Source: Eledone cirrhosa
Lineage: Eukaryota
DNA length: 64,000 bases
Direction: 5' to 3'
Assembly (NCBI GenBank): GCA_964016885.1
Contig: OZ024740.1
Span: forward strand, 63,178,001-63,242,000
Below the pieces are notes generated by a model. The model did not search any database. It had not been told where the DNA came from and worked only from the letters and a program-made list of their open reading frames with translations. This document shows, piece after piece, positions 3,271 through 53,010 of the stretch. Made by a program: the position numbers and the translations under genes. Position 1 is the stretch's first letter, and the number at the start of each line of letters is the position of its first letter.

Positions 3271-3295
3271 GTCAAAATACCTCTATAACTATATA

Positions 3296-3377
3296 ACACA
3301 CGTACAAATCCAAAGTGATCTGTTTCGCCAGTAAGTGGTTGACAGAAATGAAATAACCCAGGTTCATCAGCGTGTGT
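3296..3377 (-). ncRNA. Type I hammerhead ribozyme (family A)
   Basis: ACACACG-CTGATGA-[long imperfect stem II]-GAAA-CAGATC actttg GATTTG-TA-CGTGTGT. 7-bp stem I, 7-bp stem III, GUA site. Confidence 0.8.
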
Positions 3378-3928
3378 AAGGCTATACATTTCACACAACA
3401 CTAAGAGAATTTTTAAAGCGACCGTCCGGCTACACGTGGGAGAGAGAAGTCACAGCGTGTTTAAGGGCAGTGAACCAGTGGCCTCTGAGGGACGAGCTGC
3501 TAGAAAGGGCAGCCCCAAACCACTCAGATAAGTGTGCTCAACCAAACAGAGAGAGAGGAAAGACTGTTATAAGGAGCGAAATATCACGATACATTAACGG
3601 AGCCATAGACTCTCGTCGTTCCCTGTAAATAATGTGCTCAAATGAGAGGAAATCCTGAGCTCTTTAAAATACAATATGTTGAAAGGTAACACACTAGAGG
3701 GAGATACAGTACACTATCAATAAAACAGGGAAAAACCACCAGTGTATGGAATCTATAACCTATGAAAGGCAGAGTATAGACACGATAATTAAAAATATAA
3801 ATTAAAGCGTAAATAAATACCTCTATAACTATATAACACACGTACAAATCCAAAGTGATCTGTTTCGCCAGTAAGTTGTTGACAGAAATGAAATAACCCA
3901 AGTTATTGTTGTCTGAAATGTATAGCTT

Positions 3929-4010
3929 ACACACGCTGATGAACCTGCGTTATTTCATTTCTGTCAACAACTTACTGGCGAAACAGATCACTTTGGATTT
4001 GTACGTCTGT
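3929..4010 (+). ncRNA. Type I hammerhead ribozyme (family A, inverted copy)
   Basis: CTGATGA at 3936, GAAA at 3980, GTA at 4001. Stem I ACACACG/CGTCTGT has one mismatch. Confidence 0.75.
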
Positions 4011-4392
4011 TATATAGTTATAGAGGTATTTATTTACGCTTTAATTTATATTTTTAATTATCGTGTCTATACTCTGCCCTTCATAGGTTATAGATTCCAT
4101 AGACTGGTGGTTTTTCCCCTGTTTTATTGATAGCGCACTGTATCTCTCTATATGGTGTTACCTTTTCAACATATTGTATTTTAAAGAGCTCAGGATTTCC
4201 TCTCATTTGAGCACATTATTTACAGGGAACGACGAGTCTATGGCTCCGTTAATGTATCGTGATATATATATATATATATATATATATATATATATATATA
4301 TATATATATATATATATATATAATCAAGGTTTAGCAAATAAGAAAACGTTTCAAAATAAATTTTAATAAATTCGCTGTACTCACTATGGTTA

Positions 4393-4477
4393 CCTTTACC
4401 GAATCGGTTTCGAGTCTCAAAAATAAATGGACAGTCCTTGCGGCCTACCATTGTAAAGATAAACTCTCGTCAGAAGG
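4393..4477 (-). ncRNA. Type I hammerhead ribozyme (family B) in a ~240-nt unit between two (TA)n tracts
   Basis: CCTT-CTGACGA-GAGTTT...AGACTC-GAAA-CCGATTCGG-TA-AAGG. All three stems pair and the core is canonical. Confidence 0.88.
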
Positions 4478-4826
4478 ATCTTTTCACTCGGAGAATATAA
4501 AATTCCCGAGTTCAAATTACGAACTGGCGCTATTCAAAATTGTTCCCGAGATGAGAATAAATTATATATATATATATATATATATATATATATATATATA
4601 TATATATATATATATATATATATATATATATATATATAAATGAGGTAAATATCTCACTGAGTACTAAGTACCCATAGAGATATATAGGGTGTCTATAATA
4701 TAACTGTTGTTCTATGGTACTAATTCGAGATACCAGAACTATAAAAGTTGATGAGCAGAACAAACAAACATTAAATAATCCTTTAAATAAATTAAAAAAT
4801 GATTTAAATATCTACCTGTTCATAAT

Positions 4827-4905
4827 GCTATTACCGGCGGTTTCCATTTACAAAAGATTAGAAATTAAGAGAATTTCCAACGGAAAGTAAATTTCATCAG
4901 ATAGC
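4827..4905 (-). ncRNA. Type I hammerhead ribozyme (family C) in a ~479-nt direct-repeat-bounded unit (about 4636-5150)
   Basis: GCTAT-CTGATGA-a ATTTAC...GTAAAT g-GAAA-CCGCCGG-TA-ATAGC. The motif tgaggtaaatatctYactgagtactaagta occurs at 4641 and 5120. Confidence 0.85.
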
Positions 4906-49240: not shown

Positions 49241-49322
49241 GTTTCCTGATGATTTCGAAGCTCGTGAATTTATCCTTGATCGGGTATTTCCAAAAGCGAA
49301 TGAAACCCCTTGGGGTAGAAAC
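49241..49322 (+). ncRNA. Type I hammerhead ribozyme (family M)
   Basis: CTGATGA at 49246, GAAA at 49302, GTA at 49315. Stem I extends through CCAAGA/TCTTGG beyond an internal loop. Confidence 0.88.
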
Positions 49323-50949
49323 GTAATCTTGGTATGTTTATATACATTTTTTCTTCTAACTTTGATTTTATACCTAATTGTGTATGGTTGACGATATATT
49401 TAATCGATTTCCACGTGCTATTGAAATGCTGGGTAAATACTCTATAGCTATTGATCGCGAATAGATGGCTGTCGTTTATTTATCTATTATTTCTTCATAG
49501 GTGCCCTTTAATCTTATAGCCTGGTTTTTTTGTGGTTGATTGTGCTGATTGGGAGAGGAGATGGTGTATACATTTTATCAAATGATTCTATGGACATATT
49601 TTATTGTATATATATATATATATATAGTGGTGGACTGGCCTCGATTGAGGTTGCCCAATGGCATGGGGGCCCCAGCGGACCGACGGTAACATTGCAGAGG
49701 ACCACAGTAGCCTTTCAGGGCCCACTGTAGTATTTTAGAGGCGAATGGTTACCTTTCAAAAAGTAGCTGAAGTCTAAAAGAAAGAATAATAAAAAAAAAA
49801 AAAAAAAAAAACATTTAAGCAAAGCATTTGGTCAACCTATTCCCCAATGAATTAATAGAAACCAAAGTATATGATAGTGCAAATAACTGGAATCAGTGAT
49901 TGTACATTCTACTAAATCTAAAGCTGTAGTATCTTAGTGTATACATTAATGCATGCAACACACACACACACACACACACACACACACACACACACACACA
50001 CACACACACACACACACACACACACACACACACACACACACACACACACACACACACACACACACACACACACACACATACTCGTATATATATATATATA
50101 TATATATATATATATATATATATATATATATATATCCAGGGAGTGTAACTTAGAGTTACGGTAGGTTCATCCGGGTGAGCACTCGATGTTTAGGCTCACT
50201 TCAGCGTCGAGGTGTAGAGCTATACAGAGTGTATTATAGTGAAAAGATAACAAGGATACATATATATATATATATATATATATATATATATATATATATA
50301 TATATATATATATGTGTGTGTTTATATATATATATATATATATATATATATATATATATATACATAAATACATACACATACGCACGAACTACTGACCAAA
50401 TAATGTTTGGTATCAATGGGTTTAAGACATTAGTGTCTGCAGTTCTGTTTACATGTCAACACAAGAGCAAGAATGAAGGATTCATTCTTATGACATGGCT
50501 TTAAAAATGAGGCTTGTCTGCATAATTGCAAACAAATCGAATGTTATCATTAATATTCGAAAAACTCAGATTACATTTATTGTATTCAGCCATGTAGAGC
50601 GAAAATTTATATATATATATATATATATATATATATATATATATATATATGAGGGTTCTAAACCCCATTATCAGGCTAAAATTCCTTTAGTCAAAAATAC
50701 GGTGAAAGCTATTCTATTTTCTAATTTCAAACCTGCTCACTGTTTCAAAACATACTTACTTGCCATATATATATATATATATAAAGGATACCAAAATATC
50801 GTTATAGGTAATCCAATTAGAGGTTGTGAATACTTGTTATTATGGATATTTTTAGCGTACGGCGTGCTTGACTCAACAAGAGGTTTACGTAGATGACGAG
50901 TTTATGATTTCACATGTATTCCTATGTAAGTTTATCCTGGAGTAATAAA

Positions 50950-51370
50950 ATTGAAAAAGTGGAGAATAACATGGTCAACAGTACAAAAAGAGGGATTTAT
51001 TTGCAGTCTAACAATTGTTTCACTGATAGAGTTGTCTAAAAATTGCTGAACACTAAAAGCAGTGGCACTCAATTTTAAATACGATGTTATCTTCAGAAGC
51101 TGTTAAAAAATATATATATGTAACCGGCAAATTTACAAATATATTATTATTGATGATGTAATTTGAATTTGTGAATTTGCTGGTTACATATATATTTTTT
51201 TTAACAGTTTCTGAAGATCTAATAGAGTTAACATCGTATTTAAAATTGAGTGGCACTGCTTTTAGTGTTCAGCAATTTTTAGACAACTCTATCAGTGAAA
51301 CAATAGTTAGACTGCAAATAAATCCCCTTTTTTGTACTGTTGACCATGTTATTCTCCACTTTTTCAGTTA
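50950..51370. mobile_element. Head-to-head inverted HHR units (family N): HHR at 51205-51314 (+) and a stem-II-deleted copy at 51004-51102 (-)
   Basis: CAGTTT-CTGAAGA-tCTaATAGAGTT...AACTCTATcAGt-GAAA-CAAT(A/T)G-TT-AGACTG. Confidence 0.85.
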
Positions 51371-51501
51371 TATATATATATATTATATATATATGTGTGT
51401 GTGTGTGTGTGTGTGTAAAAGGTAAACAGAAATAACAACACAATCGGTACAGTATATGGAAGGGATATATTAGGTTAACGCTTGATATAGCAGGAAGAGT
51501 G

Positions 51502-51537
51502 TCTTAACGTTTCGGACGCTAGTCCTTCATCAGAAGA
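51502..51537 (-). ncRNA. Classic minimal PLE hammerhead (family O) in an inverted pLTR upstream of a PLE body
   Basis: TCTT-CTGATGA-A-GGAC tagc GTCC-GAAA-CG-TT-AAGA. Decayed homologue at 23141-23176 (+). pLTR-end fragments at about 11220-11305 and 61220-61253. Confidence 0.9.
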
Positions 51538-51577
51538 AATAATGAGAAATAAGATAGATTGGGGAGACGGGCGGGCT

Positions 51578-53010
51578 GGAATTTGAATCTCCCCAAAATA
51601 CACAAACAAAATAATCCCGGCCGTCCTATCGTTTCTGCGTGCAACTGCTCCACCGAGATAATTTCTGAATATTTAGACATCATCCTCACCCCGTTGGTCG
51701 GCAATCTCCCCTCCCACATCCACGATACCAATCATGCCCTTAGAATCTTCAACTCCTTCTCCTTCCCTCCTGGTCCCTTTCGCCTTCTCTTTACCCTGTC
51801 CTCTCTCTATACCGTCATCCCTCATGATGAAGGCCTCCGCGCTCTCCAACATTTTTTAGACTTACGCCCTACCTCTTACCCCAGCACTACTACACTTCTC
51901 GTCTGGCTGAGCTTGTTCTCACCCTCAATGGCTTTTCTTTTTCGGGTGAATTCTATCAGCAGGTCTCTGGGGTAGCGATGGGAACCAGGATGGGTCCAAA
52001 CTATGCCAACTTGTTGGTTGGCTACGTCGAAGCCCAAATCTTCTCCCAGTACGCTGGACCGACTCCCGAGCTATACGGTCGTTATATCGACGACTGTATC
52101 GGCGCCACCTCTCTATCACGAGAACAGCTCGACTGCTTTCTTTCTTTTGTCCAATCTTTCCATCCTGCTCTCAATTTCACCGCCTCCGTCACCTATACTT
52201 CTGTCGCTTTTCTAGATATCTCTCTATCTATTAATCTCTCACCACACCCTCTCTACTTCCATCTACATTAAACCAACAGACTCCAAATCTTATCTTGACT
52301 TCCCCTCCTCCCATCCAACCCACACCAAACACTCCATAGCCTATTCCCAATTCCTCCGTCTTCGTCGACTCTGTAGCCATAACGACGATTTCGAAACCCA
52401 TTCCCTTCGCATGGCTTTCTGCTTCATCCAGCGTGTATCTCCCCCCACCTTGATCCAAGCTGCTCTCACCCGCGCCCGTGAAACAGACCGCACCACAGCC
52501 CTCTCACCTCACCCCGCCCTCTTAACATCCGTATTCCTTTACCTCTCACCTACCATCCTATAACCCTACCACTCCGGCGACATATCCTCCGTTCCTTCTG
52601 TATCCTCTCTGACCCCGACACTTCTCACTTTTTTCCAAACCCACCCATTACTGATTTTAAGCGCGCCCGAAACCTCCGCGGCCTCCTGGTTCGCAGTTCT
52701 TTTTCGTCCTCTCCCACGACTCCACCCGGCTCTCATCCTTGTTCCCGTTCCCACTGCAACACTTCTCTTTATTTCCACCCTCACCACTCTTACAGGCCCT
52801 AACGGGTCTTTCCGTATCCACCATTCCTTCACCTTCACATCCACCCACGTTGTCTATGCCCTCCGGTGTTCCCTTTGCGGGTCTTTATATATCGGAAATC
52901 GGGACGCCGTATGGCGGACCGTTTTTCCGAACATTTGAGGGACATACGACTCGGTTTGGATACTCCTGTCGCCCGTCATTTCTGTTCTCCTGGTCATTCT
53001 TCCCTACATG
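51578..53010 (+). mobile_element. PLE RT + GIY-YIG body (Neptune-like), frameshifted
   Basis: LPKIHKQNNPGRPIVS; GVAMGTRMGP; RYIDD; FLD; KPTDS; VVYALRCSLCGSLYIG. Confidence 0.9.

Follow-up and report, generated by a model that had tools for sequence, protein, structure and literature searches.

How do Penelope-like elements (PLEs) and retrozymes come to be inserted as head-to-head pairs, with both 3' ends facing outward and a tail on one side only? The question is raised by a 64-kb stretch of the 3.0-Gb genome of Eledone cirrhosa (assembly GCA_964016885.1, contig OZ024740.1, forward-strand positions 63,178,001 to 63,242,000; hereafter the window, in whose numbering coordinates are given), where a first reading made from the letters alone, the sequence-only reading, had picked out nine inverted structures orientable by a hammerhead ribozyme (HHR) or an open reading frame (ORF). 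Head-to-head copies have been called the "most frequently observed" arrangement of PLEs, with an optional 30–40 bp tail on one of the inverted pseudo-long terminal repeats (pLTRs) (Arkhipova 2013, PMC3846280), and an adjoining inverted copy, (TA)n targets and a one-sided tail are likewise described by Craig 2021 (PMC8557442), with the mechanism listed as open and the origin of the tandem and inverted repeats and of the one-sided tail named as an open problem. Because these two papers already describe the arrangement, the polarity seen in the window is real but not new. We propose, with a probability of about 0.7, that in PLE and retrozyme insertions a single staggered cut, usually in (TA)n, offers two 3' ends that prime reverse transcription at different fixed internal sites of what is probably a single RNA.

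We followed the families represented in the window through the genome by exact-motif searches, which returned 13,939 matches for family A, 25,044 for B, 3,783 for G, 1,409 for C, 125 for D and 4 for E; clade labels (Neptune-like for A and G, Hydra clade for B) are based on motifs. Mapping of arms in the loci fetched for these families (L-numbered, such as L012 and L077) yielded 136 divergent junction pairs, 43 from C, 25 from A, 47 from B and 21 from D, including four from the window itself; the C pairs come from 70 loci minus 8 duplicates, and three duplicate or cross-family rows were removed. Below, S and L denote the short and the long 3' end, each at a position fixed within its family; the ends of families E, F, J and K were read from few incidental copies, E having four exact matches genome-wide.

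Self-alignment and reading of the sequence bore out that all nine structures carry their left unit on the minus and their right unit on the plus strand. The accompanying statement that none is tail-to-tail holds for these nine, with one formal exception, a 46-bp copy of an element 3' end that faces inward within the mirrored block 34903–35509/35695–36355. Genome-wide, we counted by eye the opposite-strand motif pairs no more than 2 kb apart among the first 100 matches listed for each of families C, D, A, B and G, mostly on the largest contig. Rather than equal numbers, we found 68 divergent and 2 convergent pairs among the matches listed (C 18:0, D 6:0, A 19:0, B 25:1, G 0:1). TA runs lie in between in both convergent cases among the matches listed (L202, L275), and convergent neighbours in the fetched loci (4 in C, 0 in A, 6 in B, 1 in D) are separated by TA runs or stand 0.9–1.5 kb apart; we read such neighbours as separate insertions. 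The head-to-head geometry is beyond chance and is not limited to the window. As had been claimed, the outer ends usually lie at TA repeats: 230 of 266 adjoin (TA)4 or longer, 10 a run of some other dinucleotide and the remaining 26 none of these.

TA-rich palindromic DNA is prone to chimeric reads and assembly errors, which counts in favour of an artefactual origin of the fold-backs, as do the long mirrored flanks of the pair 35510–35694. Such flanks were found in that pair alone of the 126 examined, a second match, of 63 bp at L202, being positionally asymmetric; moreover, the arms are asymmetric, end at fixed family-specific sites and differ by ~3%. Illumina reads from another study, possibly of a related species and mapped at 88% likeness, reproduce both the S and the L ends, TA tails included, and show a step in depth at the 5' hot spots, and family B strand-switch joints in these reads begin at 15009–15023 in 13 of 15 cases among the matches listed, the polarity of the joints not being stated by the tool. 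For the class as a whole an artefact is unlikely, though the reads span no individual junction, and chimeric reads or misassembly as the general explanation of the fold-backs strike us as barely credible. A pile of reads at 15017 was left aside; it probably marks a restriction site used in restriction-site-associated DNA (RAD) sequencing.

The feature that carries our interpretation had been missed by the sequence-only reading: the two outer ends of an insertion are of different kinds. Preferred 3' ends lie at unit positions 133 and 243–248 in C and 197 and 285 in D, at +90 and +154 from the GAAA in A, and at +42 and +120 in B, site L lying 64–115 nt further 3' than site S in these four measured families. 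Two canonical ends are present in 104 of the 136 pairs, and all 104, of which 34 come from C, 22 from A, 38 from B and 10 from D, combine one L with one S, in the order SL in 60 and LS in 44. Five further L+S pairs were recognized by eye in family H, and a reference-free check on A, B and M, at loci overlapping the main set, gave 47 mixed pairs and one S+S pair (L246). Copies with a single arm use either end (C, 12 S, 10 L and 3 other, n=25; A, 5 S and 14 L; B, 9 S and 15 L), and two RNAs choosing their ends independently would be expected to produce same-end pairs in about half of the cases. Each S or L site has a 3–5-nt UA patch matching the TA primer. Site choice is not made by homology alone, because a longer AT run 64 nt upstream of S in A is skipped by all canonical A ends.

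The two arms of an insertion also share their source. Arm divergence within and between loci was 3.2% vs 9.1% in C (lower within in 34 of 35), 3.6% vs 8.7% in B (34 of 34) and 4.1% vs 5.9% in A (18 of 22), and we equate the C value with the 3.8% found between tandem units of one arm. Conceivably, two RNA molecules from one locus are held together through a palindromic hammerhead stem III, an asymmetric protein dimer assigning the L end to one and the S end to the other. Families A, C, F, G and H have a stem III that is self-complementary in sequence, hammerheads with a short helix III are reported to act as dimers (PMC7229834), strand displacement would be unnecessary, and the mixed locus L093 and the A+B chimera of the window, both discussed below, would fit. 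However, a symmetric dimer offers no cause for the strict L+S rule (104/104), and despite thousands of copies and several subfamilies the arms match in all 34 family B pairs, so that we hold paired RNAs to be unlikely. With priming at two sites of one molecule, strict pairing would follow because two subunits fill the two sites, and the shared source agrees with this.

The published account of head-to-head PLE copies invokes self-priming on an antisense template (PMC3846280): an antisense transcript or first complementary DNA (cDNA) would snap back and copy itself, the tail arising by endonucleolytic resolution of an intermediate (Arkhipova 2013). One molecule would then explain both the head-to-head polarity and the identical arms; most pairs are indeed nested, and some junctions are palindromic (L144, L148, L200). 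Yet a fold-back needs one arm to lie inside the other, and it fails for the 19 of 94 pairs that are not nested (A 5/22, B 7/38 and C 7/34, the last at the rate of independent lengths, the length-permuted expectation being 6.9); arm lengths in C are uncorrelated (rho 0.10). In addition, dinucleotides are reiterated at S ends (families G and H, L156, L180) and target duplications of 13–15 bp reach both ends at L077, L100 and L137, other candidates being uninterpretable, so that S behaves as a true initiation site. Self-priming is accordingly an improbable origin of these pairs. Still less probable is a pile-up of independent insertions in TA repeats from which selection or deletion removed the convergent and same-end pairs. 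The density of copies is very high (exact motif matches number 13,939 for A and 25,044 for B), and separate back-to-back insertions sharing a TA run do exist (L040, L084, L177), but divergent junctions lack a TA spacer, partner arms belong to the same subfamily, the ends are L+S, and one target duplication brackets both arms.

Non-nested arms, uncorrelated lengths, 13–15-bp duplications and microhomology or inserts at the junctions uphold the core of the sequence-only proposal, that two separately templated cDNAs grow from both sides of a cut and are joined at their far ends. Its account of where priming takes place is not supported. Priming was supposed to occur on RNA 3' ends; the ends instead map to two internal positions that are fixed, and in family C the predicted cleavage site is crossed by 72 of 86 arms. 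As 35 C arms also exceed one unit in length, the template would be a circle or an uncleaved multimer. Nor is a self-complementary TA repeat a requirement, since L077 has an equal structure in a non-repeat target. The arms overlap extensively, with medians of 134 nt in A, 56 nt in B and 134 nt in C: L arms run past S in 30 of 34 C pairs, 21/22 pairs in A and 34/38 in B overlap by at least 30 nt, and L arms stopping within 8 nt of S are rare (2/38 in B, 0/22 in A).

At the opposite end of the arms, 5' ends fall within −3 to +10 of a predicted transcription start in 21 of 44 A arms and 49 of 76 B arms, with a TATA-like box 29–30 nt upstream of that start. The family A hot spot is an A 30 nt below TATAAAA (29561 to 29591), ~38 nt upstream of the ribozyme, and the family B hot spot occupies the corresponding position downstream of a TATTTAAA-type box, within stem II. 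This clustering suggests that many A and B arms run off the 5' end of the RNA, and the earlier description of such arms as truncated is likely wrong for many of them, which stop at the probable transcription start. A TATA/initiator (Inr)-like pLTR promoter and target duplications are known from PLEs (PMC3846280, PMC8557442). In family C the 5' ends are spread, with an end rate 1.9x higher over the HHR (p=0.004). Mapped arm ends confirmed that junctions lie near HHRs. Ribozyme cleavage was rejected as the main source of junctions, 5' ends lying 0 to +5 nt from the predicted site in 3/44 A, 0/76 B and 0/86 C arms (6/86 within +12), and so, for A, was the idea that junctions mostly reflect stalling of the reverse transcriptase (RT) on the ribozyme, the A hot spot being situated ~38 nt upstream of stem I; stalling may contribute in C, with its raised end rate over the HHR. 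The 43 C junctions comprise 19 with a 2–7-nt overlap, 11 near-blunt, 9 with inserts and 4 with long overlaps, and microhomology exceeds the null in A and C.

Long interspersed element (LINE) RTs are known to slip at initiation. We found (CT)5–21 tails at 9 of 11 family C L ends whose internal copy reads CTCTATA, compared to 0 of 13 with another template (p=4e-5; 25 C loci in which site L occurs internally as well as terminally, one mixed locus excluded). The tail tracks the dinucleotide of the template, which implies reiterative copying at priming. A pre-existing compound microsatellite as the source of the tails was rejected, for the opposite flank has no such run and internal copies of site L stay short, at (CT)2. 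Families A, B, G and H likewise have ends followed by (CA)n or (CT)n runs. A literature search for slippage or telomerase-like reiteration found no PLE paper.

In the mechanism that we favour, a GIY-YIG endonuclease (EN) would cut both strands ~14 nt apart and leave two 3' overhangs ending in TA, of which one would pair with the short UA patch at site S and the other with that at site L. Two RT subunits, putatively a dimer, each docked once, would account for the single L end and the single S end of an insertion. The RT that follows would push the first cDNA aside, so that the same stretch is copied into both arms; strand displacement is needed because the arms overlap. Either cDNA would then break off at a random point, close to the ribozyme, or where the RNA begins just downstream of the TATA box of the pLTR, and the ends would be joined, by a presumed repair pathway, through 2–7-nt microhomology or short inserts, with slippage at initiation adding (CT)n or (CA)n. 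What the data show is the head-to-head geometry, the L/S pairing, the shared source, the non-nested arms, the clustering of 5' ends and the template-matched (CT)n; the geometry of the cut, the single RNA, the dimer, strand displacement, the transcription start and the joining pathway are components that we infer. A more ambitious form, programmed double priming, in which a dimeric RT-EN sits at two dedicated sites of one RNA, extends both ends of the staggered cut that it has made and copies the RNA twice by strand displacement, often to the capped 5' end, with telomerase-like dinucleotide reiteration, is a tentative proposal, to which we give slightly less than even odds.

Several observations weigh against this interpretation. 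Same-end insertions exist: an L+L pair (L012, from a score-biased first set), the S+S pair L246 and the window chimera 13957–15147, a two-family L+L; a non-canonical end is present in 32 of the 136 pairs. The arms of L093 come from two subfamilies, a clear exception to the shared source. These four loci imply that at least some insertions use two RNAs or underwent later remodelling. More generally, a shared source fits a single molecule and a pair of sister transcripts equally, and arms made alike by gene conversion could give the same picture. A common RNA structure between S and L was looked for and not found, only family C folds beating mononucleotide shuffles (z −4.8). Microhomology shows no enrichment in B (p=0.25; 3 of 12 direct junctions). 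Against one reference copy, the majority of junctions in B and C were scored as insertions. Family G is almost entirely single-armed, with no inverted partner within 2 kb among the 100 matches listed, so that two-ended priming is not universal; in contrast to the two-armed families, nearly all G copies (L215–L244) are single-armed with an S end, which (CA)n frequently follows, and their 5' ends recur. Finally, Frangieh et al. found that the start site did not differ between the top and the bottom strand, using an assay in which the two ends of a given molecule were not read together (PMC11167929).

The system of that study, the Anolis element Poseidon (PAc) in vitro, may supply parts of the mechanism by analogy: both strands cut and extended, two internal starts and a predicted dimer (PMC11167929). 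Shared with our insertions are the cutting and extension of both strands, AT-rich targets and two internal RT starts matching genomic ends (Frangieh 2024, PMC11167929), as well as an uncleaved RNA template and the predicted dimer (PMC11167929). In the text consulted the start sites are not paired to the two ends of one insertion and an inverted-repeat model is absent, and they are described as non-homologous to the target, whereas each of our sites has its UA patch (PMC11167929). The tail is another difference: described as optional and 30–40 bp long in PLEs (PMC3846280), it measures 64–115 bp in our four families and occurs near-strictly once per insertion. Our literature searches turned up no earlier account of the L/S pairing rule, of arm nesting as a test of self-priming, of run-off to a start set by a TATA box or of template-matched reiteration, and no paired-site double-priming proposal for PLEs; older reviews and supplements may anticipate some of these, including the pairing or a two-primer model.

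A close precedent elsewhere is twin priming of L1, reportedly set out by Ostertag and Kazazian in 2001. There, too, both target strands prime, and 5' inversions have their 3' ends outward and ~13 bp duplications (PMC12016303); our insertions have this geometry, with three readable duplications, and the priming itself would be analogous. L1 uses a poly(A) tail and a variable internal site (PMC12016303), whereas both our sites are fixed and internal, poly(A) is lacking and both ends of C and D lie within the tandem unit. L1 arms, when they overlap, do so by a median of 12 bp (PMC12016303), compared to 56–134 nt here, and the L1-type pattern of little overlap, in which the first cDNA ends near the second primer, is not seen in A, B or C. 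Moreover, ~20% of L1 insertions are inverted (PMC12016303), whereas 43 of 68 family C arm groups are two-armed.

Identification of the families relied on motifs and comparison. HHR calls were made from core motifs, several of them U3:A8 variants (a U3:A8 swap), and pairable stems: a strict scan of the window found four HHR motifs, the remainder having been read by eye and confirmed via family comparison; an Rfam scan of the window found no hammerhead family at E≤1, its 110 low-complexity microRNA and small nucleolar RNA matches all being under gathering scores; and the predicted HHR folds were no better than shuffles. HHR polarity equals ORF polarity in the three families with a linked ORF, namely A (window ORF 26550–28142; L192), B (L193) and G (L222, L224). 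In all three the HHR motif lies 3' of the RT-EN ORF on the same strand, at motif level, so that element polarity does not depend on the ribozyme alone. The family A ORF joins RT and GIY-YIG (26730–28139; Pfam GIY-YIG above cut-off, E 3e-7; RVT_1 below cut-off, E 1e-5) and has a CX2-5CxxC linker before the C-terminal GIY-YIG, a Neptune linker that Nematis shares. The L193 ORF of family B has RT-like and EN-like motifs without a Pfam match, and its protein carries the Hydra-clade motifs RWR, DKT, CxCX5C, CxxC and CxH; that clade is described as having a C-terminal EN, RWK-like and DKT motifs, a CxCX5C linker, and CxxC and CxH around E and N (PMC8557442). The traits of EN+ PLEs, that is, 5' truncation, an adjoining inverted copy and a tail at one end, are present across the 136 pairs.

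The retrozyme-like families C, D and H are non-coding tandem repeats with units of 528, 540 and 333 bp and one type I HHR per unit. In this they resemble non-LTR (long terminal repeat) retrozymes, non-coding tandem repeats with a type I hammerhead each that are proposed to be PLE-derived, but the described unit size is 150–450 bp, and C and D are longer (PMC7229834; bioRxiv 10.64898/2026.07.22.740005). The word "inverted" is absent from the main text of PMC7229834. That these families have the L/S anatomy of autonomous PLEs is direct structural support for their mobilisation by PLE proteins. A family C tandem array of at least 35 kb (L009–L027, G000:C5, ~84.69–84.72 Mb) is a candidate source locus or a satellite.

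Within the window, six of the nine structures are clean two-armed insertions of one family with canonical ends. The family C pair at 12316–13545 (unit ~528 bp) has a minus arm with its S end at 12316 and a plus arm with its L end at 13545, the junction at 13286–13287 lying ~17 nt 5' of the HHR core. The family A pair 15216–15563, S left and L right, has its junction at the predicted transcription start (~15357). Family B pairs, L left and S right, occupy 35510–35694 (Hydra-clade pLTR, junction ~35640) and, from a subfamily, 44548–45535. The two remaining clean pairs belong to family E (L end 48617, S end 49606, right arm beginning 12 nt 5' of the HHR core) and family F (L end 50783, S end 51368); the boundaries first given for these, 48685–49620 and 50950–51370, needed correction, their left ends reaching further left, to TA runs.

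Three structures are imperfect. At 3275–4261, family D (540-bp HHR tandem unit) has a minus arm, 3275–3904, and a plus arm, 3903–4261, that ends at the L site into (TA)30; its left end at 3275 is non-canonical, abuts a non-LTR element of another kind and does not represent a site of priming. That neighbour, a minus-strand fragment at 2225–3282, has no Pfam match, and we take it to be a non-LTR element fragment with a restriction-enzyme-like endonuclease motif. At 36310–37055, a minus-strand family H tandem (36310–36780, 333-bp unit) with an L end followed by (CT)n and then (TA)n faces an unlinked and decayed plus-strand EN fragment (36780–37055) that lacks a TA end. This fragment had been called a Naiad EN; it has CxxC and CxH only and matches a C-terminal Hydra-type EN as described in PMC8557442, and the Naiad combination of an N-terminal EN without a canonical HHR is not what we see, the EN being C-terminal in A, B and G and HHR motifs being present. 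At 51416–53010 (51415–53010 as first delimited), family G has a minus HHR arm (51416–51588) with an S end and (CA)n, and a plus arm consisting of decayed RT-EN of the same family, with a non-canonical right end at 53010, inside the ORF.

Four divergent structures had been omitted. The A+B chimera at 13957–15147 comprises an A minus arm (13957–14113), an inverted piece of the B 3' untranslated region (UTR; 14113–14357) and a B plus arm with its L end at 15147; a Neptune-like arm there joins a Hydra-clade one via a short shared stretch, by an RNA template jump or a later insertion. A pair at 43537–43943, with an HHR motif at 43790 on the plus strand, has a short left and a long right end and thin genome support; an HHR-like pair at 44087–44272 is long on the left and short on the right; and a family M pair at about 63232–63425 has L left and S right.

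The plus-strand family B box and predicted start (14979–15010, start at ~15010), a junction hot spot, sit inside hammerhead stem II (14979–15050; L163–L190), so that RNA initiated at the pLTR promoter would be missing the ribozyme's first half, leaving cleavage to read-through RNA. The autonomous family A element (26730–29805, plus strand) is 5'-truncated and consists of an ORF encoding RT and GIY-YIG (to 28142), a 3' UTR, TATAAAA at 29561, the predicted start at 29591, the HHR at ~29630–29665, the S site at ~29743 and the L end at 29805. At its 5' junction (26635–26735) the first few bases are reiterated several times between short TA runs, suggesting repeated abortive second-end copying. Around the family B pair 35510–35694, a flank of ~600 bp is mirrored at 99% identity (34903–35509 vs 35695–36355); the mirror takes in interrupted TA runs and a 269-bp element, and may have arisen when two like ends fused by way of the insertion, or through misassembly. 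Inverted duplications and fold-backs induced by L1 likewise place a retrotransposition junction beside an inverted flank duplication, but were seen in cell clones and tumours (bioRxiv 10.1101/2024.12.14.628481), whereas ours is a single putative case in the assembly. A further PLE-like RT fragment at 33637–34740 (minus; RVT_1, E 5e-11) ends in TA-rich sequence beside the mirrored block.

Other repeats are interspersed. Decayed ORFs at 16385–21024 (minus), 15591–15875 and 25298–25575 are presumably Rep/helicase remnants resembling Helitron, with a duplicated 285-bp end piece, and 37900–39081 (plus) we assume to be an RTE-like LINE RT fragment with C-terminal zinc fingers. Two short hairpins at 9390–9531, centred on TA runs with a 40-bp period, have arms pointing into TA and no PLE family link that we could find. 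A 190-bp repeat dispersed in both orientations without an HHR motif (9933–10248, 40298–40612, 54550–55537, 61620–61822, 63028–63218) is probably an element like a short interspersed element (SINE).

These counts turn an "optional tail" into a pairing rule and contradict self-priming for about one-fifth of pairs, and the predictions of the proposed mechanism are directly testable in the existing PAc in vitro system. Template-matched dinucleotide reiteration is of evolutionary interest in an RT from the sister group of telomerase, as is the generation, on a massive scale, of short palindromes and compound microsatellites within a genome of 3 Gb. If programmed double priming is correct, it would account for the inverted pLTR, the one-sided tail, tens of thousands of 190–350-bp palindromic inserts and new compound microsatellites, and would be common to Hydra-clade, Neptune-like and retrozyme families.

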